A stretch of 64,000 nt of DNA from Candidatus Nomurabacteria bacterium (GCA_020639315.1 JACKGM010000001.1:225878-289877), one strand, 5' to 3'; shown: positions 35,413 to 56,736, counted from the stretch's first letter. The notes: generated by a model from the sequence alone, not told the origin. Made by a program: numbers and translations.

Positions 35413-35440
35413 TTGGATTTTGTTTTGAGCTTGCTATAAT
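35413..35440 (+). promoter_or_regulatory. Promoter TTGGAT-N16-TATAAT, with the ATG of murT exactly 6 nt downstream of the -10 hexamer. This predicts a leaderless mRNA.
   Basis: Hexamers at 35413-35418 and 35435-35440. ATG at 35447. No SD sequence. Confidence 0.45.
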
Positions 35441-35446
35441 AACCCT

Positions 35447-36754
35447 ATGAACCCAAGCATCATCCTGACTGTCTGGTTTGTAAAAATTTTTACAGTCTTG
35501 ACCAAACTCTTCGGCTATCAAGCCAGCACCCTCCCTGGCCTAATCGGATTCAGGCTAGACTCTCAGCTTCTAGACAAGTTGATCAAAAGCTACCAGGGCA
35601 AGTTGATCCTAATCTCCGGCACCAATGGCAAAACCACTACTACCAAGCTAATAGCAGACTTCCTAAGCTCAAGTGGCAAAACTCTGGTCACTAATAGTAG
35701 TGGATCCAATCTAGAAAGAGGGATTCTAGCGAGCTTGATCAAAGGGAGTAGCTGGAGAGCTAAGCTCGAGCAGGATTACCTGGTAATTGAGATCGATGAA
35801 GCAGAGCTTGCAAGGATTGTCTCTAGGTTAGACCCAAACTACCTCCTAGTAACCAACCTTAGCCGTGACCAGCTAGATCGTTATGGTGAAATCGATAGTC
35901 TAGCTACTAAGATTGGAGGGGCAATCCGTAGCCTAGATTGTCAGCTGATAATCAATGGGGATGACCCCTTGCTAGCTAGTCTCAAGACCACAAAACCAGC
36001 TATTTATTATGGGTTTAGCTTCGATAGTCAGCAGTTACCGACTAGCGGGTCAGAGCTTTCAGATATCCCCTATGACATCAAGACCAAGCAAAAAATCAAG
36101 TACCATAATCGCTATCTGGGACATCTTGGAGACTACTATACAGATAGCCATAGCTTGACTCGACCAAAGCTAGATTACCACTTGGACAAGCTAGATCTAG
36201 AGACTGGTAAGCTCCAAATCAATCATCAGCCACTTGATACCAAGCTTAGTGGAGTCTACAACTACTATAATATCCTAGCTAGTTATAGCTTGATTTGTAG
36301 TCTGGGATACAATGATAGCCAGTTTCAGTCTTTCTTGCCAAGCTTTGAACCAGCTCCAGGTCGCAGTCAATCTTTGAGGCTTGATGGTCGAGAGCTGACG
36401 ATTGCTCTAGCCAAAAATCCAGTCGGAATGAACCAGGTCATAAGCTATGTGATCAACTCAAAGCAGTATCAAAAAGTAATCATCTTGATCAATGACCAAA
36501 TAGCCGATGGCAGAGATGTCTCTTGGCTCTATGATTGTGACTTTCAAACAGTGTTACCTACTACAAAACTGTTTGCTGGAGGACTGAGGGCAAAAGACTT
36601 AAGGCTAAGACTGACGGTGGCAGGGCTTGAGTCAAGCCTGCTTGAGAAGCTTGATAAATCTAGCCTCCTAGCCAAAACTGACCCCGATGATCGGATCCTA
36701 ATAGTGCCAAACTATACTGCTATGCAAGATGTTTTTGAGGTAATTGGCCAATAG
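35447..36754 (+). CDS. murT: Lipid II isoglutaminyl synthase subunit MurT (Mur-ligase-family protein).
   Basis: Mur ligase ATP-binding motif ISGTNGKTTTTKLIADFL. Length ~435 aa. Immediately followed by a GatD homolog. Confidence 0.75.
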   Translation: MNPSIILTVWFVKIFTVLTKLFGYQASTLPGLIGFRLDSQLLDKLIKSYQGKLILISGTNGKTTTTKLIADFLSSSGKTLVTNSSGSNLERGILASLIKGSSWRAKLEQDYLVIEIDEAELARIVSRLDPNYLLVTNLSRDQLDRYGEIDSLATKIGGAIRSLDCQLIINGDDPLLASLKTTKPAIYYGFSFDSQQLPTSGSELSDIPYDIKTKQKIKYHNRYLGHLGDYYTDSHSLTRPKLDYHLDKLDLETGKLQINHQPLDTKLSGVYNYYNILASYSLICSLGYNDSQFQSFLPSFEPAPGRSQSLRLDGRELTIALAKNPVGMNQVISYVINSKQYQKVIILINDQIADGRDVSWLYDCDFQTVLPTTKLFAGGLRAKDLRLRLTVAGLESSLLEKLDKSSLLAKTDPDDRILIVPNYTAMQDVFEVIGQ

Positions 36755-36755
36755 T

Positions 36756-37466
36756 ATGAAGCTAAAACTGATTTATCTTTACCCAGAAATAATGAATACC
36801 TATGGTGATAGGGGCAATGTGATGCTGCTCGAAGCAAGGGCCAAAGATTATGGGATTGAAATATCGACTGACTATTATACCCTTGGTGACCAGCTTGACC
36901 TCACCCAGTATCAACTCTTATTTTTTGGAGGTGGACAGGATAAGGGGCAAAATCTGATTGCCAGAGATCTCATGTATCACAAAGCTCAATTGTCAGATGC
37001 GGTAAAGAGAGGGATTGCCGGCTTGCTGGTATGTGGTGGCTATCAGATGCTGGGGAGTGAGGTCGGGCTGGCAGATGGTGGGGTGCTGGAGGGTCTATCA
37101 ATCTTACCGGTTAAGACTCTAGTCGGCAAAAATCGCAAGATTGGTAATCTATTGGTGCAGTCTGAGCAGTTTGGGTCACTGGTTGGTTTTGAAAACCATA
37201 GTGGCAACACGATTCTTGATCAGTCAGGTAAGGCTCTTGCTCAAACTATCAAGGGTTATGGCAATAATGACTCTGCCATTGATGAGGGAATTATCTATCG
37301 CAATCTGATTGGCACCTATATGCATGGACCATTTTTACCTAAAAATATTCAAGTAGCGGACTGGCTACTTTCTAGAGCAGTCGGTAAAGACCTATTGACT
37401 AATACTCAGTCTAGCCTCTACAAGGTCTCTATCTCCGCTCGTGAGTCTGTGCTTGGTGCTTTATAG
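36756..37466 (+). CDS. gatD: Glutamine amidotransferase GatD (CobB/CobQ-like GATase1), partner of MurT for peptidoglycan D-Glu amidation.
   Basis: Conserved blocks LYPEIMNTYGDRGN, FFGGGQD, CGGYQMLG, GFENHSG, GYGNNDS and GTYMHGPFLPKN match the GatD family. Start set at ATG 36756, directly after the murT stop. Confidence 0.75.
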   Translation: MKLKLIYLYPEIMNTYGDRGNVMLLEARAKDYGIEISTDYYTLGDQLDLTQYQLLFFGGGQDKGQNLIARDLMYHKAQLSDAVKRGIAGLLVCGGYQMLGSEVGLADGGVLEGLSILPVKTLVGKNRKIGNLLVQSEQFGSLVGFENHSGNTILDQSGKALAQTIKGYGNNDSAIDEGIIYRNLIGTYMHGPFLPKNIQVADWLLSRAVGKDLLTNTQSSLYKVSISARESVLGAL

Positions 37467-37509
37467 GATTTTTGGGCAACTCCGAGATACTAGACTTCTA
37501 AGTAGTACG

Positions 37510-38050
37510 AAATACTGGATCCCCCGTAAGTTCTCCGAACTTCGGAGGATGACTAATGCGCGAAATACTGGTTCCCCCGTAAACTCCTTCGGAGTTTCGG
37601 AGGATGACAAGACAAGAGAGAGTGTCGGAGGATGACAATGCCCTTCCCGTGTCATCTTCGGATTTCTCTAAAAGAGAAATACTGGAGATCCACCCTCTCC
37701 TGTCATCTTCGGATTACCCGGAGGGGAATACCGGAGATCCACCTCCTCGTGTCATCTTCGGATTACCCGGAGGGTAATACCGGAGATCCAGTATTTGAAT
37801 TTGGTATTAAAGTAATGCGAAATACTGGATCCCCCGTAAGTTCTCCGAACTTCGGAGGATGACTAATGCGCGAAATACTGGTTCCCCCGTAAACTCCTTC
37901 GGAGTTTCGGAGGATGACAAGACAAGAGAGAGTTTCGGAGGATGACAAGACAAGAGAGAGTTTCGGAGGATGACAAAAGAAGGGTGGACTTCGGAGGATG
38001 ACAGGACGAGGGGTTTCGGAGGATGACAATGCAAAGCCTGGATTCGGAGG
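37510..38050. mobile_element. MITE/REP-like family 1 cluster. It includes a ~5-unit 29-nt sub-repeat array at about 37895-38040.
   Basis: Same signatures. The array reads ggaggatgacaagacaagagagagtttc repeated with variants. Confidence 0.75.
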
Positions 38051-38065
38051 GTGGTGAGGTCTTAT

Positions 38066-38228
38066 TAACCCTGTTGCCATATAACCTCACGGCTTCAAAA
38101 CTGCCATTTTTGCCCCAGACTAGCAAAACACTTCGCAGCGTAACTCCTGTTATGCTTTGTCGTGTTTTGGTATTCTGGAATAAAAATCATCAGCTTTGAC
38201 CTCGCAAGTTTATATGGCAACAGGGTTA
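38066..38228. mobile_element. 163-bp MITE-like element (family 2) bounded by perfect 17-bp TIRs AACCCTGTTGCCATATA...TATATGGCAACAGGGTT, flanked by TA.
   Basis: Read directly. A second copy at 45234-45396 is in opposite orientation, and a related uninterrupted (empty) site is at about 59590. Confidence 0.6.
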
Positions 38229-38244
38229 CTGAGCTAAAAATGTA

Positions 38245-38273
38245 TTCGCAAACAAGAAAATCACTGGTATAAT
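38245..38273 (+). promoter_or_regulatory. Promoter TTCGCA-N17-TATAAT, with the ATG 6 nt downstream (leaderless).
   Basis: Hexamers at 38245-38250 and 38268-38273. ATG at 38280. Confidence 0.4.
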
Positions 38274-38279
38274 AGAGTA

Positions 38280-38930
38280 ATGTTAGATCAATTGTTTGGC
38301 TCCAAAACCAGAGTGAAGTTATTAACCCTATTTTATAATAATGTCGATCGTCCATATTATGTCAGAGAGATCACAAGAAAAATCGATGAGCAAATCAATT
38401 CAGTCAGACGGGAGCTGCAAAACCTGCTTTCAATCGGTATTCTCAAGTCAGTTTCTCGTTCCAACCGACTATATTATGAGGTTGACCCCGGGTTCAAGTT
38501 CTTTAAGCAATTCGAGCAAATATTCCAAAATCTAGATCAGACAGATGCCACTGATGATAAGCTAAACAAAGAAGAAGAGAAAATCACTCGAATGATCCGG
38601 AGGACTGGCAATGTCAAATTGCTCTTCCTCAGCGGCTCGTTTGTCCGAGGTTCGAGGCAGATGATCGATATCTTTGTGGTCGGAGATGTCAATAAGACCC
38701 AGCTAGCAAACTCGGTCGAGATGCTAGAGCAAGACATGAATCGGGAACTCAACTATACCGCGATGAGAATCGAGGACTTTGACTACCGCCGCAACCTCAA
38801 TGATCGGTTTTTGACAGATATTTTAGATTCCAAAAAGATTGTTTTGATTGATGAGCTTGGTCTGTATCACAAATCAGTCGGGATCAAGGATCAATCAGAG
38901 GAAGATTCTAGTGAAAGAGATCAAGGTTAG
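38280..38930 (+). CDS. Winged-HTH DNA-binding protein fused to a nucleotidyltransferase-fold domain (putative regulator).
   Basis: N-terminal wHTH-like YYVREITRKIDEQINSVRRELQNLLSIGIL. Minimal NTase motif LFLSGSFVRGSRQMIDIFVVGD. Confidence 0.45.
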   Translation: MLDQLFGSKTRVKLLTLFYNNVDRPYYVREITRKIDEQINSVRRELQNLLSIGILKSVSRSNRLYYEVDPGFKFFKQFEQIFQNLDQTDATDDKLNKEEEKITRMIRRTGNVKLLFLSGSFVRGSRQMIDIFVVGDVNKTQLANSVEMLEQDMNRELNYTAMRIEDFDYRRNLNDRFLTDILDSKKIVLIDELGLYHKSVGIKDQSEEDSSERDQG

Positions 38931-39927
38931 TTTTTCGATCCCCTCGATCCTTCAGGTGATTGGCGTGCTGGTTGGGGTTGTGGTAGTCTGGAATCTTAGA
39001 TCAGTTTTAATTCCTTTGCTTATCAGTATCATCATAGCAGCAGCGCTTAATCCGATTGTCCAGATGATGACCAGGCGAAAGATTCCCAGACCCTTAGCTG
39101 TCTTGATCGTTTTCGCTATATTGATGGCTTTACTAATCACCTTGATTGGGCTAGTGATCCCCATCCTTGCCAGCCAAATTGGTGAGATTGTCAACCAGGG
39201 TCCAACAATTGCAACTCAGTTCAAGGATTTGCTGATCGAGATAGGGTTGCCGAATAGTGTAATCCAGGAAATTAATATCGAAAGGGTTGGGCACTATGCT
39301 AGCCAACTTGAAGGACAAATCAGTGGATCAGTCGGAGCTTTGGTCAATGGTTTAGCTCAGTTTGTTACAATCATTGTTTTTACCGTTTACTTACTGCTAG
39401 GTAGTAGTACGATTGGGGCTAGCTATGATCGAGTAGTCAAGGATTGGCCAATCCGTGAACGATTAGTCAGGATTGGTGATAAAATTAGCCAAAAACTAAG
39501 CTATTGGCTCAGGGGTCAGATTGTTTTATCATTTGTAATCTTTGGGTTCAGCTACATTGGGCTAAGGATTATCGGGGTTGAGAGCGCCTTTACTTTGGCA
39601 GTGATTGCTGGCATGACCGAGGCAATTCCAATCATTGGTCCTGTTATTGCCGGGGTTATTGCTGGACTTGTGGCTTTGGTGACCTCTCCGGTTCAGGCAC
39701 TCTTGGTAGTGCTATACTATATTGTCTTGCAACAGCTGGAGAATAATCTAATCGTACCCCTAGTCATGAGAAAAGCCTTGGGTTTGCCTCCACTCACTGT
39801 ATTATTTGCTCTGCTAGTCGGAGCAAAACTTCTGGGATTTGTTGGTGTAATCTTTGCAGTACCTTTGGCTTCTATTATTACAATTACTGTGGAGGAATTT
39901 TTGAGCAATGGCGAAGAAGCGGAATAG
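38911..39927 (+). CDS. AI-2E family transporter (PerM/UPF0118-like permease).
   Basis: Polytopic membrane protein with the conserved C-terminal block GLRIIGVESAFTLAVIAGMTEAIPIIGPVIAGVIAGLVAL. Start set at GTG 38911, preceded by a GAGGA RBS. The track ATG at 38848 would overlap the upstream gene by 83 nt. Confidence 0.6.
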   Translation: MKEIKVSFSIPSILQVIGVLVGVVVVWNLRSVLIPLLISIIIAAALNPIVQMMTRRKIPRPLAVLIVFAILMALLITLIGLVIPILASQIGEIVNQGPTIATQFKDLLIEIGLPNSVIQEINIERVGHYASQLEGQISGSVGALVNGLAQFVTIIVFTVYLLLGSSTIGASYDRVVKDWPIRERLVRIGDKISQKLSYWLRGQIVLSFVIFGFSYIGLRIIGVESAFTLAVIAGMTEAIPIIGPVIAGVIAGLVALVTSPVQALLVVLYYIVLQQLENNLIVPLVMRKALGLPPLTVLFALLVGAKLLGFVGVIFAVPLASIITITVEEFLSNGEEAE

Positions 39928-42064
39928 TACTAAGAAAGTATCAAAGCAGGCTAAAACCAAAGAGCTTACTTTTAACCCAATCAAGTACGAGATAATCGCT
40001 GTCTTGATTGGATTTTTGGCAATTATGCTGCTGGCTGCCAGTTTTAATTTGGCCGGAGGTTTGGGAGAAGCAATTCTTTCAGGGTTTAAGGTGATTTTTG
40101 GTTCAGCTGTCTATGCCTTTATTTTGATTTTGCTAGTCTATGCTTATCAGCTATTTCGACTGGAAGATTTTCCGAAAAAGTTTCGGTTTGTTGCGTTGTT
40201 TATTGTGCTAGTGAGCTTGTCGGGTATATTTGGAATTTTATCAGAAGATAAGGCCTTTAGTCTTAATGCAATTAGATCCCATGGTGGACTGGTTGGTTGG
40301 ACCCTTGATAGTATTTTGGTTGGGCTGATTGGTAAACCCTTGAGTATTCTACTAATGGTGATTACGGGGTTAATCGGACTAATCTTGGCAGCCAACAAAA
40401 GTATTAAAGATTTGTTTAGTAAGGAAAAAGCAACTAGTGACAAGAAGCAGGCTGATAGCATCGATAAGGATCCAAAGTCCCAAGACCTCAATCGTTTGGC
40501 GATTCGAGGGACGATTGACGCTAGTGGAGATAAAAAGTCTTCAAGTAGCAAGGAGCAAGAGCCAATCAAACCAAGCAAAACCCTTTCGGCGCTAGTACTT
40601 GAAAGCGATCCAGATTGGCAAGCACCGAAGCCAGAATTTCTCGAAGCTACCACTACCAAACCGGACGCAGGAGATGTCAAAGAAAATGCCAAGACTATCA
40701 AGAATACCTTTGCTGACTTCAATATAGCGGTCGAAATGCACGGAGTCAATATCGGTCCGACTGTCAGTCAATATAGCTTGAAACCGCCTCCTGGAGTCCG
40801 TTTGACCAAGCTAACCACTCTTGACCACAATTTGGCACTAGCTTTGGCGGCCCATCCGATCAGGATAGAAGCACCAATCCCAGGCAAGAGTTTGGTGGGA
40901 GTAGAGATGCCCAATAAGCGTCCGGCAGTAGTCAGAATGAGGGATAGTTTATTTGCTAAATCAATGCAATCCAACCCAGATCCTCTAAGCTTTGTGATTG
41001 GCCGAGATGTCAATGGGGAAGTAGTGACAGCCAATCTTGCCAAGATGCCCCATCTACTAATTGCTGGAGCGACTGGCTCGGGTAAGTCTGTCACAGTCAA
41101 TTCCTTGATAGTCAGTATGCTTTATCGCAACTCACCCAATCAACTCAAGCTGATCTTGGTCGATCCAAAACGAGTCGAGATGACACTTTATAATGATATC
41201 CCCCATTTGTTGACCCCAGTGATTGTAGAACCAGAAAAAACCGTTTCTGCTTTGCGTTGGGCAGTGGCTGAAATGGATAGACGCTATCGTACATTGTCTA
41301 GTCACAGAAAGCGTAATATTGATGAATACAATGAGATAGAAGATCAGGACAATATGCCTTATATCGTGATCGTAATTGATGAGTTGGCAGATTTGATGGC
41401 GGTGGCTGCCAATGAAGTCGAAGGCTTAATCGTTAGATTAGCCCAGATGGCGAGGGCAGTAGGGATTCACTTGGTGCTTGCTACCCAGAGGCCGAGTGTC
41501 GATGTGATTACTGGCCTAATCAAGGCAAACTTCCCGGCTCGGATTGCTCTATCTACTACTTCTCAGATTGATTCTAGGACAATTATCGATCAGGCTGGGG
41601 CTGAGAAATTGCTCGGCAAGGGGGATCTACTCTTGGTTACCCCAGATTTCCTGAAGCCAAGACGGGTGCAGGGGGTATTTCTCAGCGAGAAGGAGGTCAG
41701 TAGCGTAACCAACTTCTTAAGAGAACAAAGACCACCTAGCTATGACCAAGAAATCCTTGCTCAAGCGGCAAAATTGGGCAACAAAGGCTCGGCTAGCTTT
41801 GGCGGAGGAGAAGATCAAGATGATTTATACCAAGACGCACTTGAGGTAGTAATTAGCTCGGGCAATGCTTCGGCATCTATGCTCCAGAGAAGGTTAAGGG
41901 TTGGTTTTCAGAGAGCTTCGAGATTACTAGATATGATGGAAGAAAATGGCATCATCTCTCCGCAGGATGGACAAAGATCGAGAGAAGTTTTGGTGGATTC
42001 GATCGAGCAAGCCAATCAGCTCTCAGAGCTAGGGGATCAAGATTCAGAGCTGGATGAATACTAA
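39908..42064 (+). CDS. ftsK: DNA translocase FtsK/SpoIIIE.
   Basis: N-terminal TM segments. Walker A AGATGSGKSVTVNS, Walker B IVIVIDELADLM, and a C-terminal gamma-domain-like winged helix. Confidence 0.85.
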   Translation: MAKKRNSTKKVSKQAKTKELTFNPIKYEIIAVLIGFLAIMLLAASFNLAGGLGEAILSGFKVIFGSAVYAFILILLVYAYQLFRLEDFPKKFRFVALFIVLVSLSGIFGILSEDKAFSLNAIRSHGGLVGWTLDSILVGLIGKPLSILLMVITGLIGLILAANKSIKDLFSKEKATSDKKQADSIDKDPKSQDLNRLAIRGTIDASGDKKSSSSKEQEPIKPSKTLSALVLESDPDWQAPKPEFLEATTTKPDAGDVKENAKTIKNTFADFNIAVEMHGVNIGPTVSQYSLKPPPGVRLTKLTTLDHNLALALAAHPIRIEAPIPGKSLVGVEMPNKRPAVVRMRDSLFAKSMQSNPDPLSFVIGRDVNGEVVTANLAKMPHLLIAGATGSGKSVTVNSLIVSMLYRNSPNQLKLILVDPKRVEMTLYNDIPHLLTPVIVEPEKTVSALRWAVAEMDRRYRTLSSHRKRNIDEYNEIEDQDNMPYIVIVIDELADLMAVAANEVEGLIVRLAQMARAVGIHLVLATQRPSVDVITGLIKANFPARIALSTTSQIDSRTIIDQAGAEKLLGKGDLLLVTPDFLKPRRVQGVFLSEKEVSSVTNFLREQRPPSYDQEILAQAAKLGNKGSASFGGGEDQDDLYQDALEVVISSGNASASMLQRRLRVGFQRASRLLDMMEENGIISPQDGQRSREVLVDSIEQANQLSELGDQDSELDEY

Positions 42065-43025
42065 GACTGATCCAGTTGATTTGGTAGCGTTGGGAGCCAG
42101 ACTTGAGTCTGCTCGCAAAGCCAAGAAGCTTAGCTTGGCTCAGGCTGAAAAATCTACTAAGATTCGGGTGTCAATTCTTGAGAAGATAGAGTCTGGGCAG
42201 TACCAACTTGATGTTTATTGGTCAGGTTTGGTCAATAATTATGCCAAGTTTTTAAACCTTGATCCTGAGATTGATAATAGCCAAGGTGCAAGCTCGATTG
42301 AAACCTCAAAGATTTTTTCAGTAAGACCGATCAATGATCGACGTTTAATATTTACACCAAAGACATTCTTGTTTTTGGTGCTAAGCTTTATATTTGGGAC
42401 TATATCAGTATTCATCGCTATCCAGCTCAGGGCTCTATTGTCGAGTCCAAAGATTGAGCTAGATAATATTGATCAAGTGATTACAATCAATCAGAGAATA
42501 TTTGAGCTCAGTGGTAAGACGGATAATGATAGTGATGTTTTTATCAATGACTCACCGGTGCTGAGCAATCAGGACGGGAGCTTTAGTGAAATGATTACTT
42601 TGAGTCAAGGGTATAATAATCTGGTAGTTTCAGCAAGAAATAGACTGGGTAAGCAAACTGACAAGGGGATAACAATCATCGTCGATGCACCTGAAGTCGC
42701 CCAGAATACCCAAGAAGAACAAGAGGATAGTTTAGGAGACCCGGGAACAGGAGAGGTAATACTAAAACTCAAAGTAGGGGATAGTGCTACTTGGCTGGTA
42801 GTTACGGTAGACGGGGTAGAGGTGTTTAGAGGGACTTTACTGGCAGGAGTCGAACAGGAGTTTGTAGCACAGGAGCAGATTGGTATCACTACTGGTAATG
42901 CTAAGAGTACCCAGCTCACTCTGACCAATGATAAGGTGACAGATTATCAGATAGGTGAGCTGGGGGGAGAAGGGGAGGTCAAGCGCGATTTGATTTTTGG
43001 GCGGGATACTGAGTTTATTGAATAG
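42054..43025 (+). CDS. rodZ: RodZ-like protein with an XRE-type HTH, a single TM helix and a DUF4115-like C-terminal domain.
   Basis: N-terminal LGARLESARKAKKLSLAQAEKSTKIRVSILEKIESGQ. TM LFLVLSFIFGTISVFIAIQL. C-terminal KLKVGDSATWLVVTVDGVEVFRGTLLAGV pattern. The 11-nt overlap with the ftsK stop is ATGAATACTAA. Confidence 0.55.
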   Translation: MNTKTDPVDLVALGARLESARKAKKLSLAQAEKSTKIRVSILEKIESGQYQLDVYWSGLVNNYAKFLNLDPEIDNSQGASSIETSKIFSVRPINDRRLIFTPKTFLFLVLSFIFGTISVFIAIQLRALLSSPKIELDNIDQVITINQRIFELSGKTDNDSDVFINDSPVLSNQDGSFSEMITLSQGYNNLVVSARNRLGKQTDKGITIIVDAPEVAQNTQEEQEDSLGDPGTGEVILKLKVGDSATWLVVTVDGVEVFRGTLLAGVEQEFVAQEQIGITTGNAKSTQLTLTNDKVTDYQIGELGGEGEVKRDLIFGRDTEFIE

Positions 43026-43029
43026 AGGT

Positions 43030-43161
43030 AGTCATCCTCCGAAACCCGCCTCTCTTCTGTCATCCTCCGAAGTTCGGAGAACTTACGGGGGATCCAGTAT
43101 CCGGCATTGTGCATTGTCATCCTCCGAATCCTCATAGAGGATTACAGGGGATCCAGTATTT
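43030..43161. mobile_element. MITE/REP-like family 1 element (two reversed arms) between rodZ-like and recA.
   Basis: tgtcatcctccgaagttcggagaacttacgggggatccagtat and gtcatcctccgaatcctcatagaggattacaggggatccagtatttt. Confidence 0.7.
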
Positions 43162-43240
43162 TGCATTAGAGTTATGTTTGCTATATATTCGTATTTGTAT
43201 TACAATATAAATCAACAGTATATTTTAATCAGGAGGAGTT

Positions 43241-44239
43241 ATGAGTAATACAAAAGATCCAGCCAAGAGTAAGGCAATCGACATGGCTTTAGAGCAGATA
43301 GAGCGACAGTTTGGTTCTGGCGCAATCATGCGTTTTGGTCAAGGCCAGAAGGTACAAGTAGAAACCTTTTCTTCTGGTAGTCTCAACCTAGACGAAGCAC
43401 TTGGTGGTGGTTTGCCAAAAGGTAGAATTATCGAGATTTATGGTCCAGAGTCTAGTGGTAAGACTACCTTATCATTGCACGCAGTGGCTGAGGTTCAAAA
43501 ATCTGGTGGTACTGCTGCATTCATCGATGCAGAGCATGCTCTGGATCCAGAATACGCAAGCAAGATTGGGGTCAAACTCGATGAGCTACTGATCTCTCAG
43601 CCAGACAATGGTGAGCAGGCACTGGAGATCTGCGAGACTCTAGTCCGCTCAGCTGCCGTCGATTTGGTAGTAGTTGATTCAGTAGCAGCTTTGGTGCCAA
43701 AAGCTGAGATCGACGGCCTGATGGGGGATAGTCATGTCGGTCTGCAGGCTAGGCTAATGTCTCAGGCTTTGCGTAAGTTGACAGGCATTGTCTCCAAGTC
43801 TAATACAACAGTAATCTTTATCAATCAGTTGAGACTCAAGATAGGAGTGATGTTTGGTAACCCTGAGACCACACCTGGTGGTCAGGCCTTGAAGTTTTAT
43901 GCATCAGTCAGGCTAGACATCCGGAGAACCGAAAGACTTACTAAGGAGCAAGAACAGATAGGCAATCGGGTCAAGGTCAAGGTGATCAAGAATAAGATTG
44001 CTCCACCCTTCAAGATTGCTGAGTTTGATATCATGTACAATCAAGGGATTTCCAGGAGTGGCGAAGCTCTAGATATTGGTCTAAACTTAGGCTTAATCAA
44101 GAAATCAGGCTCTTGGTACAGCTATGGTGAAGACAAGATTGGCCAAGGAGCTCAGGCAGCCAAGGAATTTTTGGAAGCCAACCCAAAGGTGCTTAATAAA
44201 ATAGTAAATGAAGCGAAAGCCAAGTCCAAGTCTAAATAA
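43241..44239 (+). CDS. recA: Recombinase RecA.
   Basis: [39 protein letters not shown] and the remainder are canonical RecA. An AGGAGG RBS lies 7 nt upstream. Confidence 0.95.
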
Positions 44240-44705: not shown

Positions 44706-44720
44706 GAGAGTATAAATGCG

Positions 44721-45233: not shown

Positions 45234-45396
45234 TAACCCTGTTGCCATATAAACTTGCGAGGTCAAAGCTGATGATTTTTATTCTAGACTAGCAAAACAC
45301 GACAAAGCATAACAGGAGTTACGCTGCGAAGTGTTTTGCTAGTCTGGGGCAAAAATGGCAGTTTTGAAGCCGTGAGGTTATATGGCAACAGGGTTA
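45234..45396. mobile_element. Second copy of the 163-bp family-2 MITE-like element (TIR AACCCTGTTGCCATATA), in opposite orientation to the copy at 38066.
   Basis: The internal 129 bp is the reverse complement of the copy at 38066-38228. It also carries the perfect inner inverted repeat TAGACTAGCAAAACAC/GTGTTTTGCTAGTCTA. Confidence 0.6.
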
Positions 45397-45564: not shown

Positions 45565-45570
45565 AAGCAC

Positions 45571-48063: not shown

Positions 48064-48089
48064 GACTAGATTGAAAATTTAGAAATGCA

Positions 48090-48346
48090 AAATACTGGAT
48101 CCCCCGTAAGTTCTCCGAACTTCGGAGGATGACAAGACAAGGGGCGGGTTTCGGAGGATGACGATGCCTCCTCCCCGTGTCATCTTCGGATTTCTCTAAA
48201 AGAGAAATACCGGAGATCCAGTATTTGGATTGAATAATGAGGAATGCAAAATACTGGATCCCCCGTAAGTTCTCCGAACTTCGGAGGATGACAAGAGATG
48301 AGTCATATTCCAAAATCTCGCAGGGATTTATGGGATATCTAGTACT
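48090..48346. mobile_element. MITE/REP-like family 1 cluster.
   Basis: Same signatures, with forward arms at 48090 and 48252 and a reverse arm at about 48213. Confidence 0.75.
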
Positions 48347-48377: not shown

Positions 48378-48452
48378 TGGAGCGGGTGACGGGAATCGAA
48401 CCCGTATCCTCAGCTTGGAAGGCTGATATAATAGCCGTTATACAACACCCGC
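48378..48452 (-). tRNA. tRNA-Gly (anticodon UCC), 75 nt with encoded CCA. The alternative register would give Trp(CCA).
   Basis: Reverse complement GCGGGTGTTGTATAACGGCTATTATATCAGCCTTCCAAGCTGAGGATACGGGTTCGATTCCCGTCACCCGCTCCA. The 7-bp acceptor stem is GCGGGTG/CACCCGC. The anticodon stem TCAGC/GCTGA has loop CTTCCAA (U33, anticodon UCC, A37). The T-arm is ACGGG-TTCGATT-CCCGT. Discriminator U73 is typical of tRNA-Gly. Confidence 0.7.
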
Positions 48453-48512
48453 ATAGGTAATTTGTCCGTTAACAAGCCTGATTCTATAATACCTTATTTT
48501 GATAATATTTGC

Positions 48513-48518
48513 TATACT
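48513..48518 (+). promoter_or_regulatory. TATACT -10-like hexamer 6 nt upstream of valS ATG 48525 (leaderless).
   Basis: Read directly. This supports the downstream start for valS. Confidence 0.35.
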
Positions 48519-48524
48519 AATCTT

Positions 48525-51119
48525 ATGCTAGATAAAGTATACAAGCCCCAAGACTACGAAGATCAGATTTATCAGAAGTGGCAAGACTCAAGTGCTTTTG
48601 TCCCAAGTGACGATCAGAGCAAAGGAGTTTTTTCTATCCCGATGCCTCCTCCCAATGCTACTGGAGTATTGCATATTGGACACTGTCTAATGCTGGCAAT
48701 CCAGGATTCTTTAGTCAGATACAATCGGATGCAAGGCAAATCCACACTCTGGATACCGGGGACTGATCATGCTGGCTTGGCTACCAATGCAGTGATTGAA
48801 AAGCAATTAGCCGAGCAGGGGACAAACAAATATGAGTTGGGGCGTGAAGCCTTTGTCAAACGGACCAAAGAATTCGTCGAGAATAGTCGAGGGACCATTA
48901 ACGAGCAGATCAAGCTAATGGGGGCAAGCTGTGATTGGTCTAGAGAGCGTTATACTTTTGATCCCGCCATGAATCAGATTGTCAGCCGAGTCTTTGTCAA
49001 GATGTATCATGATGGTTTAATTTACAGAGGACATCGGATAGTCAATTGGGATCCCAATTTGATGACCAATGTTTCAGATGATGAGGTAGAGCACATCTTG
49101 GAAAAAGCTAATCTTTATTATTTCAAATTTGGCCCATTTGTGATCTCGACTGCTCGACCTGAGACAAAGTTTGGGGATAAGTATATAGTAGTTCACCCAG
49201 ATGATCCTAGATATCAAGATTACCAACATCGTCAGGAACTGGAGGTGGAGTGGATCTTCGGTAAGACCAAGATCACAGTGATCAAGGATTCAGCGATAGA
49301 TATGGAATTTGGAACTGGTGCGATGACTATTACTCCCTGGCATGATGCTCTAGACTTTGAGATAGCTGTTCGGCATGATTTGGATAAGGAGCAGGTGATT
49401 GACTTTGATGGCAAAATGCTTGGGATTGCGGGTGAATGCCAAGGGATGACTATCTTGGAGGCAAGAGAGCGGGTGGTGGAAATTCTGGATCATAAAGGGT
49501 TACTAGTCAAAGTCGATCCAAATTATCAACATAGTATTGCCATCAATTCTCGCAACAAAGGCATAATCGAGCCGCAAATTCGCTTGCAATGGTTTGTAGA
49601 TGTCAACCGTAAAGCTATTGACTGGAAAGGTCAAAAGCAAAGCTTGAAGGAAGTAATGCAAGTAGTGATCAGGGATCACTCGATTGAGATTATCCCGGAA
49701 TATTTTGATAAGACATATTTTGCCTGGATTGATAACCTTAAAGACTGGTGTATATCAAGGCAAATTTGGTGGGGACATCAGATACCAGTCTGGTATCGTG
49801 AGGGTCAAATCTATGTGGATACAGTACCGCCTAAGGATGACGATAAAGGTCAGTGGGAGCAAGATCCAGATACCCTAGATACATGGTTTAGCTCTGGTCT
49901 TTGGAGCTGGAGTACTTTGATTGATCAGGAGCTTGGGGCAGATTCAAATTTATCTCTTGACCAATTACTTGAGATGAGCAGTGATTACCAAAAATATCAT
50001 CCAGTTTCTTTGCTTGAGACTGGTTATGATATCATATTTTTCTGGGTCGCTAGGATGATACTTATGACCACCTATTCTACTGGTCAAATCCCCTTCAAAA
50101 AAGTCTATTTGCATGGTCTGGTTCGGACTAAATCAGGCAAGAAGATGAGTAAATCAGACCCATCAACAATTATTGACCCTCTGGAGGTAGTGCCAGAATA
50201 TGGTGCAGATGCTCTGAGGTTAGCGATGTTGGTCGGGCTAAGTCCAGGTAGTGATAGCAAGATCTATCTTGAAAAGATTGCCAAGCATCGTAATTTTTGT
50301 AATAAGCTTTGGAATGTAGCTAGATACTTGGAGTCACTGCCAGCTGACAAAAAGCAAGACGCTAGCATTCGTAGCTCTCATGACTACTATATCGTTCAGA
50401 GGTTAAATCAACTGATGGTTGAGGTCAATGCTGGTTTTGAGTCATATAACCTATCGGTAGTCGGCCAAAGCCTGGAAAGCTTTTTGTGGGATGATTTTGC
50501 AGATTGGTATATCGAGGCTTCTAAAGTCGAAGCCAATCCAACCTTGGCTAGAGCTATTTTGCTCGAATATTTGAAGCTCCTTCATCCTCTTGCACCATTT
50601 ATCACAGAGGTAATTTGGCTAGAGCTTGGTGGTCAAGGGCTACTTATCAGTGCAAATTGGCCAAAGACTTGGCCTAGTCATGCTAGTAGCCAGGTTGTCG
50701 ACTTTGGGCGAATTAGAGCTTTGGTCGAGGAAGTTCGTTCAATCAATGCTGAGCTGGAGAACTCAGAAGTATATATTGACTTTGGAGATTCTGATTTGGC
50801 TAGCGTTGGGTTACTGGTCAGATCTCTAGCTGGAGTTAGCGATCAGCGTCCAGATCAACCAGTCGTGCTGAAGTCTGTTACTAGTAATCTTGATTTGCTG
50901 CTTGGGTTAAACCAAGCTAAGTATCTTGATCAAAAACTGAAAGCAAAGCTTGCCCGCGAAGAAAAGGCGAAAAAAAGTTTGGAGACTAGACTGGAAAATG
51001 AGTCTTATCTAGATAAAGCTCCAGCTGAAAAAATAGTCGAGACCAAGCAAGATTTGGCCAAGACAAAACTAAATATTGATAGGCTAACAGCTCAGATTGG
51101 TCAGCTAGCTGAGCTCTGA
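48525..51119 (+). CDS. valS: Valine--tRNA ligase.
   Basis: HIGH motif PNATGVLHIGH and KMSKS motif KMSKS, with an editing domain and a C-terminal coiled coil. Start moved to ATG 48525 (MLDKVYKPQDYED). Confidence 0.9.
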   Translation: MLDKVYKPQDYEDQIYQKWQDSSAFVPSDDQSKGVFSIPMPPPNATGVLHIGHCLMLAIQDSLVRYNRMQGKSTLWIPGTDHAGLATNAVIEKQLAEQGTNKYELGREAFVKRTKEFVENSRGTINEQIKLMGASCDWSRERYTFDPAMNQIVSRVFVKMYHDGLIYRGHRIVNWDPNLMTNVSDDEVEHILEKANLYYFKFGPFVISTARPETKFGDKYIVVHPDDPRYQDYQHRQELEVEWIFGKTKITVIKDSAIDMEFGTGAMTITPWHDALDFEIAVRHDLDKEQVIDFDGKMLGIAGECQGMTILEARERVVEILDHKGLLVKVDPNYQHSIAINSRNKGIIEPQIRLQWFVDVNRKAIDWKGQKQSLKEVMQVVIRDHSIEIIPEYFDKTYFAWIDNLKDWCISRQIWWGHQIPVWYREGQIYVDTVPPKDDDKGQWEQDPDTLDTWFSSGLWSWSTLIDQELGADSNLSLDQLLEMSSDYQKYHPVSLLETGYDIIFFWVARMILMTTYSTGQIPFKKVYLHGLVRTKSGKKMSKSDPSTIIDPLEVVPEYGADALRLAMLVGLSPGSDSKIYLEKIAKHRNFCNKLWNVARYLESLPADKKQDASIRSSHDYYIVQRLNQLMVEVNAGFESYNLSVVGQSLESFLWDDFADWYIEASKVEANPTLARAILLEYLKLLHPLAPFITEVIWLELGGQGLLISANWPKTWPSHASSQVVDFGRIRALVEEVRSINAELENSEVYIDFGDSDLASVGLLVRSLAGVSDQRPDQPVVLKSVTSNLDLLLGLNQAKYLDQKLKAKLAREEKAKKSLETRLENESYLDKAPAEKIVETKQDLAKTKLNIDRLTAQIGQLAEL

Positions 51120-51149: not shown

Positions 51150-51343
51150 GATACTGGATCCCCCGTAAGTTCTCCGAACTTCGGAGGATGACAATCCTCT
51201 TCCCGTGTCATCTTCGGATTACCCGGAGGGTAATACCGGAGATCCAGTATTTGAATTGAATCCCATAAATGCAGAGATACTGGTTCCCCCGTAAACTCCT
51301 TCGGAGTTTCGGAGAATGGCAGGAGAGAAACGGGGGTTTCGGA
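51150..51343. mobile_element. MITE/REP-like family 1 element downstream of valS.
   Basis: gatactggatcccccgtaagttctccgaacttcggaggatgaca...tgtcatcttcggattacccggagggtaataccggagatccagtattt. Confidence 0.75.
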
Positions 51344-51389
51344 GAATAGCAAAAAAGAAATAGACTTAGAGGACTACAGTTGCCTCAGA

Positions 51390-52500: not shown

Positions 52501-53712
52501 TTAATGTAAACTAAAAAATATCAGGATAGCATTAGCAATCAAAGCAAGGATTGGAATCCAGATTGATTTGCCCAAAGGCAATTTCTTGTCTAGGCTGAGC
52601 TTGATCAGACTTAAGTTGACCAGGCCAAAAATCGCTAAAAGAATTGTACTGGTAATACTTGCTAGGGTGGACAAGTCGAACAGGTTGGTCAGAATAAAGA
52701 TTATGATCGCTGAAGCCAAGGTGATCCTGGCTGGCACATTATTGCGATTGAGTTTTTGGAGTAGACTAAACCCCATCCAGGGATGGTCGCGATTAACCCC
52801 GTAGATTAGACGAGAGACCATAATGATTTGAATCAATACACCGTTGGTGATAGCAGCTAAACCAATCAACCCAAGGATATTAAAGTCTACCCCGGTAGCA
52901 AGCTTGAAGACATCACTCAGTGGGGCATTAGTTTTTGCCAGAGCTTCCGTGCCCAGGGTAGTCTGGGCGATTATGCCTACGAGGAGGTAAACAATCCCGG
53001 CAATAATTAATGAAATATAGATCCCTCTAGGCATGTTTTTTTCGGGGGACTTGACCTCTTCGGCGACATTGGACATATCTTCAAATCCCAAGTAGGCGTA
53101 AAAGGCAATAAAACTCCCCGAGATTATAATCCCAAGGTTACCAATAATATCATTTGGGTTCAGGTTGATATCCAAAGGTTTTTGGTTGCTCTTGATATAG
53201 AGGGTACCAAAGATAATTACCCCAATTAGGCCAATGATTTCAAGCCAGGTCATCGCCCCAGCTATCTTAATAGCGCGATCCACTTGATTGGTTGCAAATA
53301 TCGCCATCAGCCCAATCAGTCCGAATAGAATTACTACGGGGCTAAGGTCTGGAATAAACTGATGAAAATAGCCAATAAAACCCTTGGATAAGGTAGCAGA
53401 AGAGATGATGCCAGAAAGGGCAATCCCCAGACCTGTTACTAGGGGTAAGAGCTTATTTTTGAAAGCCGCCTGGACATAGGCCGCTTCACCTCCGCTAGTA
53501 GGATAGGCACTAGATAGTTTGGCAAAACTATAAGCACTAAGTGCTGCTACTAGATTGGCCAGGACAAATGATACTGGCAAAAAGCTTCCTGCCCGATTAG
53601 CAACCTCTCCAACCAACACATAAATACCTGCTCCTAGAATATTCCCTAGTCCGTATAAGACTAATAGATTTAGGCTCAGGCGTCTTCGCAATTTTTGTTT
53701 TGATTTAACCAT
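52501..53712 (-). CDS. Amino acid permease (APC superfamily).
   Basis: 12-TM protein with LVLYGLGNILGAGIYVLVGEVA. Start moved to the ATG at 53712 (MVKSKQK), which is preceded by TATACT-N6 (leaderless). Confidence 0.7.
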   Translation of the reverse strand: MVKSKQKLRRRLSLNLLVLYGLGNILGAGIYVLVGEVANRAGSFLPVSFVLANLVAALSAYSFAKLSSAYPTSGGEAAYVQAAFKNKLLPLVTGLGIALSGIISSATLSKGFIGYFHQFIPDLSPVVILFGLIGLMAIFATNQVDRAIKIAGAMTWLEIIGLIGVIIFGTLYIKSNQKPLDINLNPNDIIGNLGIIISGSFIAFYAYLGFEDMSNVAEEVKSPEKNMPRGIYISLIIAGIVYLLVGIIAQTTLGTEALAKTNAPLSDVFKLATGVDFNILGLIGLAAITNGVLIQIIMVSRLIYGVNRDHPWMGFSLLQKLNRNNVPARITLASAIIIFILTNLFDLSTLASITSTILLAIFGLVNLSLIKLSLDKKLPLGKSIWIPILALIANAILIFFSLH

Positions 53713-53718
53713 AACCAG

Positions 53719-53724
53719 AGTATA
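53719..53724 (-). promoter_or_regulatory. TATACT -10-like hexamer 6 nt upstream of the permease ATG (leaderless).
   Basis: The minus-strand reading is ...gctatactctggttATG. Confidence 0.35.
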
Positions 53725-53879
53725 GCATAACAATCCTGCAAGGTGTCACCGTACAAAACGAAGCATTCATGGTGTGGTTGAGGTAAGAGTAAGGTTTTCG
53801 GTCACAAAATGTCTGCAAGGTGTCACCTTATAGGGTGGGCCGGGGGAGGGTTGGTTTTTGTTTTGGGGGTGGCGTGGTG

Positions 53880-53885
53880 TATGAT
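53880..53885 (+). promoter_or_regulatory. TATGAT -10-like hexamer 6 nt upstream of ruvA ATG 53892 (leaderless).
   Basis: Read directly. Confidence 0.35.
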
Positions 53886-53891
53886 AGTTTT

Positions 53892-54458
53892 ATGTTCGCA
53901 TTTATTACTGGGAAAATTAGAGAGGTGTCGGCTGAAGGTAAGCTAATAGTGATGGTCGGGGGCTTAGGGTTCGAGGTTCAGCTCAACCAAAGAGATCAGC
54001 TTGGTCTGGAAATTGGTCAGATCGTAGAGCTATATATTTATGAGCATATTCGAGAGGATCAATTTGGACTTTATGGATTTGTCGATAGTGCAAGTAAAGA
54101 GATATTTGTTAGGTTGATTGGTGTAAGTGGAGTCGGACCCAAGGTCGCATTGGCGATCGTTTCAAGTAATCAGACTGATCAATTGGTAAGGGCGATTGAA
54201 GATGGAGACCCTAGGTTGTTTGAGCAGGTATCTGGGGTGGGTAAGCGTACAGCCCAGAAAATTATTCTGGACTTGCGAGGCAAGCTGGTGATTGCTGATC
54301 AGAAACAAGCCAGTAATAGTTTGACTCAACCCCTAGCCCAGGCTCTTGAGCAGCTTGGGTATAAGCCCGCTCAAATCAAACAGGTTACCGGGATAATTGA
54401 CCCAGAACTTAGTCTATCGGATCAGGTCAAGCAAGCTTTGAAGGAGCTCAGGCAATGA
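53892..54458 (+). CDS. ruvA: Holliday junction branch migration protein RuvA.
   Basis: MFAFITGKI... start typical of RuvA. HhH motifs [16 protein letters not shown]. Overlaps ruvB by 4 nt. The track's upstream TTG extension was rejected. Confidence 0.8.
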
Positions 54459-55450
54459 TTGACCATAGTAGTCCAAAGCTGGTAAATACTGAAGAGATTG
54501 AGTTTGAACTCAGTCTGAGGCCTCAAAGGTTCAATGAATACATTGGTCAAGAAAGAGTCAAGTCAAGTCTTGACTTGGCGATTCGAGCCGCCAAAAAGAG
54601 AAATCAGCCGATAGACCATGTGTTGCTCTATGGGCCTCCCGGTCTGGGTAAAACTACTCTAGCTCAGGTGATAGCCAATGAACTAGGGACTAGCATCAAG
54701 ATTACTAGTGGGCCAGCTATTGAGAAGGCGGGTGATTTAGCCGCAATTTTGACCAATCTCGAGCAGGGGGATGTCTTGTTTATCGATGAGATTCATCGAA
54801 TGCCTCGTCAAGTAGAGGAGATACTATATTCTGGCATGGAAGATTTTGTCTTGGATATTATGCTAGGTAAGGGGCCTTCAGCTCAAAGTGTTCGGGTCGA
54901 TCTGGCACCCTTCACAGTCGTAGCAGCTACTACCAAGTATGGAGGATTGTCGGCGCCTCTGAGGGATCGGTTTGGCTTGATTCATCATTTGGATTTTTAT
55001 TCTGAGTCAGAGATTGCTAGTATTTTGGAGCGTTCGAGTAAGATTCTTCAGGTAGATAGTGAACGCTCAGTCTTGGAAGTCCTTGCGGGTCGATCTAGAT
55101 TAACGCCACGGATTGCTAATAGACTTCTAAAGCGAATTAGAGATTATGCCGATGTTCATGGTCAGGGGAGGGCTACCCCAGATATCGTTAGGGACTGCCT
55201 GGATCTACTTGAGATTGATAGTCTGGGGTTAGACAAGAGAGACAGGAGACTAATGAAGGTCATAAGTGAATATTATGGAGGAGGCCCAGTCGGACTAAGT
55301 GCATTAGCAGCGACCATGCATGAGGAAACTCAAACTATTGAAGATGTTTATGAGCCTTATTTGATGCAGATTGGATTTATCAAGCGGACACCTCGAGGTA
55401 GGAGCTTAACCTCAAAAGGGGAAGATTATATTAAACTTGTTCTCCCCTAA
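54455..55450 (+). CDS. ruvB: Holliday junction ATPase RuvB.
   Basis: Walker [15 protein letters not shown], Walker [10 protein letters not shown] and the RuvB C-terminal winged helix. Confidence 0.9.
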
Positions 55451-56004
55451 GTTCTCCGAACTTTTGGGGTGATAATGCCTGAGATACTGGATCCCCCGTA
55501 AAATCCTTTGGATTTTCGGAGGATGACAAGACAAGGGGCGGGTTTCGGAGGATGACAATACCCCCTCCCGTGTCATCTTCGGATTACCCGAAGGGTAATA
55601 CCGGAGATCCAGTATTTGAATTGAATACCAGAAATGCAAGATACTGGATCCCCCGTAAGTTCTCCGAACTTCGGAGGATGACAATGCACGATGCAAGATA
55701 CTGGATCCCCCGTAATCCTCTATGAGGATTCGGAGGATGACAGGAGAGGGGCGGATTTTCGGAGGATGACAGGAGTTGGGTCACCAAACCAAATTTCCAG
55801 CTCCTCCTTGGGTCACCAAACCAAATTTCCAGCTCCTCCTTGTGTCATCTTCCAAAATCCCGCCCCCTCCTTCCCGTGTCATCTTCCAAAATCCCGCCCC
55901 CTCCTTCCCGTGTCATCTTCCAAAATCCCGTAGGGATTTATGGGAGATCCACCCCGCTGTCATCTTCGGATTACCCGAAGGGTAATACCGGAGATTCAGT
56001 ATTT
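55449..56004. mobile_element. MITE/REP-like family 1 cluster with a distinct sub-repeat set (31-nt gtcaccaaaccaaatttccagctcctccttg x2; 33-nt tgtcatcttccaaaatcccgccccctccttccc x3).
   Basis: Read directly. Confidence 0.75.
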
Positions 56005-56175
56005 ATAGACCCAACACCCTGGCTTACCACTAAATTCCTGACCTATACTAGTACTAGCCACCTTTACTCCTTCTTCATATCAAAGGATATGACTCAGTCT
56101 TAAAGAAGACTATTACTTAGTCCAGGACCAAGAATTTATTGGTGGCAAGACAAAGTGTTGGGTCTATAAGTATGC

Positions 56176-56181
56176 TATAAT
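56176..56181 (+). promoter_or_regulatory. TATAAT 6 nt upstream of ATG 56188 (leaderless).
   Basis: tgctataatttttttATG. Confidence 0.4.
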
Positions 56182-56187
56182 TTTTTT

Positions 56188-56736
56188 ATGGAAGCTGACA
56201 GACGGTATCACTACCCTGGGCAAAATGAGGATGAGATTGTCAAAAGAATTACCTATAGACATTGGGCATTTCTTTTGCCAGCTTTTGGCTTGTCGGTCAC
56301 TATTGTAGCAGTAGTAGCTTTTATTTTTGTCTACGCTTGGACATCATCACTTGGCAATGAGATGAAGCTAAATCTGGGCTTGCTAGCAGTATTTTTATTA
56401 TTATTCGTCGTAGGTTTTATGCTAGCTAGTATCTGGATCTGGCACAATAATAAGATCATTATTACCAATCAAAATTTGGTAGAAGTAGAGCAAAAGAGCC
56501 TGTTTAATAAATCAATTTCAACTTTGAGACTAGTCAATATCCAGGATGTCAGTGCAGATATTGAAGGTCCCGTCCAGTCTGCCCTGGGCTATGGCACAGT
56601 CACTGTCCAGTCGGCGGGTGAAAAACGGAATTTTGTCTTTCAATATATTCCTCAGGCCTATGAACTCAAGGATTATATAAGTGATTTGCATCTTTATGCG
56701 GCAACTGAGCAGGAAGATAAATTGCTAGATCGCTAG
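56188..56736 (+). CDS. Membrane protein with a bacterial PH (bPH_2/DUF304) domain. It is a paralog of the 44208 product.
   Basis: Two TM helices then IIITNQNLVEVEQKSLFNKSISTLRLVNIQDVSADIEGPVQSALGYGTVTVQSAG. Confidence 0.5.
   Translation: MEADRRYHYPGQNEDEIVKRITYRHWAFLLPAFGLSVTIVAVVAFIFVYAWTSSLGNEMKLNLGLLAVFLLLFVVGFMLASIWIWHNNKIIITNQNLVEVEQKSLFNKSISTLRLVNIQDVSADIEGPVQSALGYGTVTVQSAGEKRNFVFQYIPQAYELKDYISDLHLYAATEQEDKLLDR

Follow-up and report, generated by a model that had tools for sequence, protein, structure and literature searches.

-10-like hexamers six nucleotides upstream of start codons suggest leaderless messenger RNAs in a Saccharibacteria-like genome

How is translation begun at genes that show a promoter-like hexamer, and no Shine-Dalgarno (SD) sequence, immediately before their start codon? 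The question is raised by a 64,000-nt stretch of DNA (JACKGM010000001.1:225878-289877, assembly GCA_020639315.1; hereafter the window), in which murT, valS, ruvA and several other genes have a hexamer resembling the -10 element of a bacterial promoter exactly 6 nt upstream of the ATG. We propose that these genes are probably transcribed into leaderless messenger RNAs (mRNAs), which would coexist with SD-led genes in the same genome. NCBI lists the organism as 'Candidatus Nomurabacteria bacterium'; it is uncultured and, within the Patescibacteria, Saccharibacteria-like. RuvB and MurT searches place it, as a rare lineage, among Saccharibacteria/Patescibacteria, and its GC content is 44%. The public annotation comprises NCBI proteins MCB98346xx, with locus tags H6792_, on a contig of 445,775 bp. 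Gene identities were assigned with Pfam and NCBIfam, and include MurT/GatD, an AI-2E transporter, FtsK, a RodZ-like protein, RecA, a PPIase, ValS, an amino-acid permease, RuvA/RuvB, bPH-domain proteins, TsaB/TsaE, an LTD protein and RNase Y. The analysis covers the window and a comparison set of about 0.35 Mb of related loci, rather than a whole genome.

Seven start codons and the hexamers upstream of them

An original prediction on this DNA had placed a -10-like hexamer exactly 6 nt before the ATG of seven genes, and all seven junctions were recovered unchanged when the sequence was read again:

murT, 35432-35449, plus strand: TGCTATAAT-AACCCT-ATG, that is TGC-TATAAT-N6-ATG, with the -10 hexamer at 35435-35440 and the ATG at 35447; NCBI call of 435 aa from the same ATG.
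wHTH gene, 38245-38282, plus strand: TGGTATAAT-AGAGTA-ATG, with a -35 hexamer TTCGCA, a 17-nt spacer that includes TGG, TATAAT (38268-38273), N6 and ATG 38280; NCBI call of 216 aa from this ATG.
PPIase gene, 45556-45573, plus strand: CAGTATAAT-AAGCAC-ATG, with TATAAT at 45559-45564, ATG 45571, no TGn and a -35-like CTGGCA at 45535-45540; NCBI call of 400 aa.
valS, 48510-48527, plus strand: TGCTATACT-AATCTT-ATG, that is TGC-TATACT (48513-48518)-N6-ATG 48525; NCBI call of 864 aa.
Amino-acid permease gene, 53710-53727, minus strand: TGCTATACT-CTGGTT-ATG, that is TGC-TATACT-N6-ATG with the A at 53712, divergent from ruvA; NCBI and Logan calls both of 403 aa from this ATG.
ruvA, 53877-53894, plus strand: GTGTATGAT-AGTTTT-ATG, that is TATGAT (53880-53885)-N6-ATG 53892; NCBI call of 188 aa.
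bPH-domain gene, 56173-56190, plus strand: TGCTATAAT-TTTTTT-ATG, that is TGC-TATAAT (56176-56181)-N6-ATG 56188; NCBI call of 182 aa.

Several observations identify these ATGs as the likely translation starts. The ATG is the first start codon of the open reading frame (ORF) in murT, the wHTH gene, the PPIase gene and the bPH gene at 56188, and NCBI gene calls begin at the very ATGs in question for ten genes (the seven above together with miaA, tsaB and a first bPH gene, described below). Profile coordinates for RuvA, ValS, MiaA, MurT and TsaB likewise agree with their ATGs as the predicted true starts: the MurT profile aligns from residue 12, position 2 of the ValS equivalog profile corresponds to residue 4 counted from ATG 48525, and position 1 of both RuvA_N and TIGR00084 lands on Met 53892. 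The expectation that the pattern would correct over-extended ORFs was borne out for naive ORFs, which are shortened from 212 to 188 aa in ruvA, from 885 to 864 aa in valS and from 410 to 403 aa in the permease gene, but not for the NCBI annotation, which already uses the short starts; one public Logan gene call has the over-extended 212-aa RuvA. A search for downstream in-frame starts preceded by an SD gave no convincing alternative to the ATGs, and the only SD-like one, valS 48642, would remove a conserved N-terminal part of the profile.

Spacing, promoter marks and conservation

Raw counts of the N6-spaced motif in the window are mildly above those of shuffled controls (TATAAT-N6-ATG, 4 against 0.95 expected; TATRMT-N6-ATG, 8 against 3.4), and each of the 8 TATRMT-N6-ATG matches, counting both strands, begins an ORF of 180 codons or more, when merely 9.8% of all window ATGs open at least 150 codons. 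The peak at a spacing of 6 is strong at ORF 5' ends. In a scan that made no use of gene calls, each ATG lying at most 40 codons from an ORF 5' boundary and opening at least 100 codons was examined for a -10-like hexamer at spacings from 0 to 20. The window yielded 8 matches at spacing 6 against a mean of 0.45 at the 20 other spacings (Poisson 3e-8). Spacing 6 also stood out in six Saccharimonadia-like loci (15 against 1.1; Poisson 1e-12 in relatives) and in other Patescibacteria loci (15 against 4.3), and no such peak was found in 60 control loci from other bacteria, mostly Firmicutes, that were handled identically to the Patescibacteria loci (9 against 11.6). The controls derive from a genome scan with RuvB, a query so conserved that it returned mostly Firmicutes; these became the negative control, and some 20 Patescibacteria loci were kept. 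In both the window and its relatives, the peak of the stringent hexamer class falls on N6 itself, with nearly nothing at N5 or N7. Excesses of TATACT...ATG at N1 and N7 are irrelevant, because they stem from an 831-bp tandem repeat in the first giant gene (window 1-7305), which runs off the left edge of the window with frame 1 open from base 1.

The peak is also specific to ATG. A hexamer at spacing 6 precedes 8 of the 49 ATG candidates in the window and none of the 117 GTG or TTG candidates, and in the relatives it precedes only 2 of 239 GTG/TTG candidates. Leaderless translation depends on a 5' AUG, a dependence that the ATG-only peak fits.

The hexamers carry further marks of promoters that, like ATG specificity, played no part in picking the sites. 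TGn lies directly upstream of 5 of the 8 N6 sites and of none of 41 other candidate starts in the window (Fisher 3e-5), and the number of sites with TGn rises to 6 if miaA is included at N7; in relatives the corresponding counts are 7/15 and 9/138. Features of the -35 region were likewise not used for selection: a consensus scan for complete -35/-10 promoters gives the wHTH and PPIase sites among its best matches, and -35 elements are weak or absent at most sites. In an unbiased base-frequency profile upstream of first ATGs, the commonest bases in the window and the Saccharibacteria-like loci are T at -12, A at -11 and T at -7, whereas the same profile in the control loci shows a run of G at -12 to -8. 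The hexamer consensus retains A2 and T6, as a Pribnow box does.

Beyond the seven junctions, the window contains four additional candidates and one probable false positive:

miaA, 34011-34029, plus strand: TGC-TACACT-N7-ATG 34027; position 2 of the MiaA profile corresponds to residue 7 from this ATG; NCBI call of 245 aa.
tsaB, 57511-57527, minus strand: TATATT-N5-ATG with the A at 57513, directly behind tsaE; the TsaB profile starts at residue 5; NCBI call of 140 aa.
First bPH gene, 44194-44210, plus strand: TAAAAT-N5-ATG 44208, inside the 3' end of recA; NCBI call of 165 aa.
Glycosyltransferase family 4 (GT4) gene, 63421-63440, plus strand: TATAAT-N8-ATG 63438, with a leader of about 2 nt; Pfam Glycos_transf_4.
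Probable false positive, 7387-7404, plus strand: TATGAT-N6-ATG 7402.

The last of these was rejected as an eighth leaderless start, given that ATG 7402 is probably internal to a gene starting at GTG 7309; the ORF from that GTG encodes a basic N-terminal segment followed by a hydrophobic membrane anchor, has GGAG 9 nt upstream and is called by NCBI in its 211-aa form.

Conservation was assessed in a syntenic relative (GCA_017983775.1, loci L120-L123) that was found by a RuvA search and shares 60% protein identity with the window in RuvA, 61% in MiaA, 64% in MurT and 68% in the PPIase. In this relative, 10 of 11 such genes retain a -10 box 5-9 nt from the ATG. The arrangement at ruvA (GTG-TATGAT-N6-ATG) is identical to that of the window, and the wHTH gene keeps its N6 spacing in L123 (TGA-TATAAT-N6-ATG, with the -35 region conserved), as does the second bPH gene (TGT-TATAAT-N6-ATG), whose hexamer overlaps the ruvB stop codon in the relative and where 4/30 upstream bases are identical. 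Spacing is also unchanged in miaA (N7; TGC-TAAAAT-N7-ATG) and in the first bPH gene (N5; TAAAAT-N5-ATG). It differs by one base in the PPIase gene (N6 in the window, N7 in L120: TGC-TATAAT-N7-ATG, though just 5/30 upstream bases are identical), valS (N6 and N7; TGA-TATACT-N7-ATG), the permease gene (N6 and N7; TGG-TAATAT-N7-ATG), tsaB (N5 and N6; TAAAAT-N6-ATG) and the GT4 gene (N8 and N9; TATAAT-N9-ATG). Over the ten ortholog pairs, identity amounts to 53/60 positions (88%) in the hexamer, 114/300 (38%) in the 30 nt upstream and 19/50 in the spacer, and TGn is kept in 6 of the 10 orthologous promoters.

The exception is murT, which in the relative overlaps miaA and has GGAG, an SD-coupled arrangement; in the window, a 682-bp repeat-filled insertion parts murT from miaA and murT has its own TGCTATAAT-N6-ATG. 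A Saccharimonadia contig of 59% GC (L118) has murT with TATACT-N6-ATG. At greater distance, ruvA is preceded by -10-N6-ATG in 5 of 8 Patescibacteria loci at 35-40% protein identity, with TAGAAT, TATAAT, TAAAAT or TACAAT as hexamer, and nearly all ruvA genes of the control bacteria, mostly Firmicutes, have a leader and an SD. Metagenome loci retrieved with the permease as possible promoter relatives (n=35; 31-47% identity, no common neighbours, GC content up to 68%) belong to another lineage and were unusable.

SD-led genes form the contrast class:

recA, 43231-43243, plus strand: SD AGGAGGAG 5 nt before ATG 43241, duplex of -10.0 kcal/mol; the SD is kept in the relative.
Other SD-led starts: 8992, 12983 and 39908, and, on the minus strand, 52439 and 58810.

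The predicted lack of an SD at the seven sites is supported by the energy of the best duplex with the anti-SD sequence, which lies between +1.4 and -2.9 kcal/mol at six of them (-1.9 kcal/mol at murT) and reaches -5.3 kcal/mol at ruvA because of a G-rich stretch in the upstream region. The range from +1.4 to -2.9 kcal/mol holds for nine leaderless-class starts. Energies of -7 to -11.4 kcal/mol were obtained for recA, giant genes 2 and 3, ftsK, gatD and the genes of the cadherin-like and LTD proteins, with ruvB intermediate at -6.3 kcal/mol. Strong GGAGG-type SDs had been predicted for recA, the giant genes, rny and the genes of the LPXTG-like and LTD proteins, and they are present in recA, giant genes 2 and 3 and the LTD gene; rny, by contrast, has a weak one (AAGGGA, -4.0 kcal/mol). 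In the relative, recA, ftsK and the cadherin-like and LTD genes remain SD-led, and the weak SD of rny is likewise kept.

Proposed leaderless initiation and its alternatives

Leaderless mRNAs alongside SD-led genes give, in our judgement, the best reading of these data. Sigma-70-type promoters, mostly of the extended -10 form (TGnTATAAT), would be positioned such that RNA polymerase begins transcription at the A of the ATG or no more than 1-2 nt from it. The canonical transcription start is the seventh base after the -10 hexamer (PMC12641261), and a hexamer at -12 to -7 followed by six bases would thus put +1 on that A. The resulting mRNA would have neither a 5' leader nor an SD, so that the ribosome would have to initiate on a 5'-terminal AUG; here we infer both the exact transcription start and the mode of ribosome loading. 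Genes such as recA, ftsK and those of the giant surface proteins, the LTD protein and the cadherin-like proteins use a canonical GGAGG SD. The original prediction had proposed a dual initiation regime of this kind, and it agrees with the N6 peak, the TGn enrichment, the ATG specificity, the conservation of the hexamer and the peak-free controls. A leaderless type is the best explanation for some 10-11 of the roughly 30 genes of the window, about a third, most of them apparent heads of transcription units.

Several points weigh against this interpretation. The spacing is not rigid: it was predicted to be fixed at 6 nt and is exact at the seven cited sites, but varies between N5 and N9 in the additional candidates and the relative (N7 in miaA, N8 in the GT4 gene, N5 in tsaB and the first bPH gene, and N7 in three orthologs of the relative), so that some transcripts may carry leaders of 1-3 nt. 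In the window, tsaB and the first bPH gene, and in the relative bPH2 and tsaB, lie directly behind an upstream gene and would need promoters in coding sequence; for tsaB to be leaderless, its promoter would have to lie within that gene, and the first bPH gene is a weaker candidate because its conservation could partly stem from the recA coding sequence. The plus strand has another TATAAT 34 nt upstream of the valS ATG (48485-48490), and one N6 match, ATG 7402, is probably not a gene start. For Saccharibacteria, the transcription start site data found were confined to Nanosynbacter lyticus, where RNA-seq coverage was used to infer 188 sites, and the sample is limited to 64 kb and about 0.35 Mb of related loci.

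The alternative that survives best is that the promoters are real but their start point is loose, most mRNAs having leaders of 1-5 nt and translation still being SD-independent. The occurrence of N5, N7, N8 and N9 among further candidates and orthologs speaks for it, as do the published spacers of 6-8 nt in group C genomes (PMC6028130), yet the stringent class has its peak at exactly N6 with almost none at N5/N7, and a purine, the A of the start codon, occupies the canonical +1 position when the spacing is N6. We consider this alternative unlikely, and it differs from leaderless initiation in degree only, because leaders of up to 5 nt are usually still counted as leaderless.

A second alternative gives the TA-rich hexamer a function in the transcript: promoters further upstream would make longer or polycistronic mRNAs, and on these the hexamer would serve for SD-independent ribosome binding or as an unstructured AU-rich stretch. 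This reading could account for the hexamers that directly follow or overlap a preceding gene (in the window those of tsaB and the first bPH gene, in the relative those of tsaB and bPH2), for the upstream TATAAT of valS and for the few genes that have neither an SD nor an adjacent -10 box. It is hard to reconcile with the enrichment of TGn one base upstream of the hexamer: TGn is a DNA contact of sigma region 3, and to our knowledge it has no role in RNA. At the wHTH promoter a -35 hexamer, conserved in the relative, stands at a distance of 17 nt, all eight N6 sites of the window come after gaps of at least 97 nt or at divergent junctions, ribosomes here evidently use GGAGG where an SD is present, and the retention of A2 and T6 in the consensus is that of a Pribnow box. 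On balance we regard an element acting in RNA as improbable.

A chance pairing of AT-rich hexamers with ATG in intergenic DNA that is itself AT-rich, to which raw counts of just 2-4 times the shuffle expectation and the accidental look of one match in eight (ATG 7402) might point, is effectively refuted by the spacing peak in the window and relatives, its absence from the controls and the 88% identity of orthologous hexamers against 38% in their flanks, and we deem it highly improbable.

Relation to known systems and neighbouring features

Promoter-like motifs at start codons have precedents in other bacteria. In published work, leaderless genes are marked by a TANNNT whose first T precedes the start codon by about 12 nt (PMC3160421), group C genomes combine a Pribnow box 6-8 nt from the start with SD genes (PMC6028130), and TA-led leaderless genes have been experimentally validated in Deinococcus radiodurans (PMC12340547). 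The junctions described here resemble the TA-led genes of Deinococcus-Thermus (D. deserti, D. radiodurans, T. thermophilus), in which TANNNT lies about 6-7 bp upstream, GGAG-type SD genes occur alongside, about a third of ORFs have the motif and the spacing to the start matters (PMC12340547, PMC3160421). They differ in their near-full TATAAT, often with TGn, where high-GC Deinococcus has only TAnnnT, and in belonging to a Patescibacteria genome of 44% GC known from sequence alone. A further likeness is to GeneMarkS-2 group C (Actinobacteria: M. tuberculosis, Streptomyces, Corynebacterium), in that NCBI places the starts here at the predicted leaderless ATGs. In mycobacteria GTG, too, serves as a leaderless start, unlike in the window and relatives, where the peak is ATG-only. 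As in the extended -10 promoters of Gram-positive bacteria and E. coli, TGn stands one base upstream at 5 of the 8 N6 sites and the -35 element is mostly weak or absent; in the Firmicutes loci examined, however, such promoters lie 15-25 nt upstream of an SD-led start, as exemplified by a Firmicutes ruvA with TGGTATAAT, about 10 nt, AGGTGAT and then ATG. Archaeal leaderless genes (GeneMarkS-2 group D) share an mRNA that begins at the start codon and SD-free initiation, here predicted from sequence, but their TATA box lies about 26 nt upstream (PMC6028130), as opposed to a sigma-70 -10 box at -12 to -7.

What is described here thus extends a known arrangement to a new lineage and involves no new mechanism. 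Our literature search found no paper linking leaderless genes with Saccharibacteria, Patescibacteria/TM7, Nanosynbacter or the candidate phyla radiation, and the TM7x transcriptome preprint and the Southlakia genetics paper contain no discussion of transcription start sites or leaders. Extended -10 leaderless initiation could conceivably be a conserved major mode across Saccharibacteria, and perhaps Patescibacteria, that serves about a third of genes and half of transcription-unit heads, although we advance this generalization only tentatively. If it is true, the Patescibacteria radiation, with its reduced ribosomes, would be a third large leaderless-rich bacterial lineage beside Actinobacteria and Deinococcus-Thermus. 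The proposed leaderless starts of the present genome would themselves add a deep-branching, ribosome-reduced lineage to the debate on ancestral leaderless initiation. They also offer a rule of thumb for annotating promoters and start codons in genomes of Saccharibacteria and other Patescibacteria, where ORF-based or SD-trained callers over-extend, as in the 212-aa Logan RuvA, and they may inform how expression cassettes are built for systems that have recently become tractable, Southlakia and Nanosynbacter among them (TGnTATAAT, 6 nt, ATG, no ribosome-binding site). S. epibionticum, for one, is naturally transformable (PMC10633639).

Some observations concern individual junctions. The 72-bp spacer between valS and a divergent tRNA-Gly gene (TCC; 48378-48452, minus strand), the only hit of an Rfam scan at gathering thresholds, must house both promoters; within this spacer the plus-strand TATAAT (48485-48490) shares bases with a TATTATAGAAT on the minus strand. 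Upstream of ruvA, a conserved GTCTAC or GTATAC lies about 37-44 nt before the -10 box in four distant Saccharibacteria-like loci (L001, L004, L005 and L011), with TT before it in 3 of the 4; the motif is absent in the window. It lies too far upstream for a -35 element and may be bound by a regulator. The window and its syntenic relative have diverged very unevenly, the wHTH regulator (38280-38930), FtsK (39908-42064) and RecA (43241-44239) being 95%, 92% and 96% identical. Among the few genes with neither an SD nor an adjacent -10 box (62174, 18151 and 25278), the CAP-domain gene with ATG 62174 has a 35-nt upstream sequence, TATAAAGCTAGTGCTAAAACAAAAATAAA, that is near-identical in the relative (window 62130-62176; L120 16190-16236), which suggests a conserved leader without an SD; a leader so little changed would imply that a third class, leadered and non-SD, exists.

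The murT promoter is part of a block, some 50 nt long and ending in TTTTGTTTTGAGCTTGCTATA, that occurs at 35385-35438, 45462-45515 and 59607-59660. Only the murT copy runs into TATAAT-N6-ATG, the others having TATAGG and TATATC and no gene directly after them. Because murT is SD-coupled to miaA in the relative, its promoter may have come with inserted repeat material, and the splitting of operons by intergenic repeat arrays, exemplified by murT, may be a source of new leaderless promoters. The DNA upstream of murT also includes a 170-nt non-coding block (35200-35370), which contains TTGGACTATAATAATC and is 87% identical to a block upstream of rny (59779-59949); a partly palindromic 82-nt block is found upstream of both the wHTH gene (38106-38187) and the PPIase gene (45275-45356). 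Neither block has an Rfam match at gathering thresholds; they could be small RNA genes, miniature inverted-repeat transposable elements (MITEs) or duplicated regulatory regions.

The gaps between called genes also contain hairpin repeats of about 50 nt, in which a core GTCATC[CT]TC[CG] is accompanied by a tail resembling GGGGGATCCAGTATTT. The core occurs about 90 times, in both orientations, and the repeat units share a 15-bp stem fold with compensatory sequence variants. Clusters of these repeats are located at 8100-8900, 33500-35100, 37500-38060, 43000-43190, 44700-45170, 48080-48330, 51150-51350, 55430-56010, 58880-59340 and 61680-62070, all within such gaps. The syntenic loci L120-L123 have almost no hairpin repeats, and their intergenic gaps are 140-1000 nt shorter than those of the window. 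The repeats look like a recent expansion of elements akin to MITEs or repetitive extragenic palindromes (REPs) in a supposedly streamlined genome.

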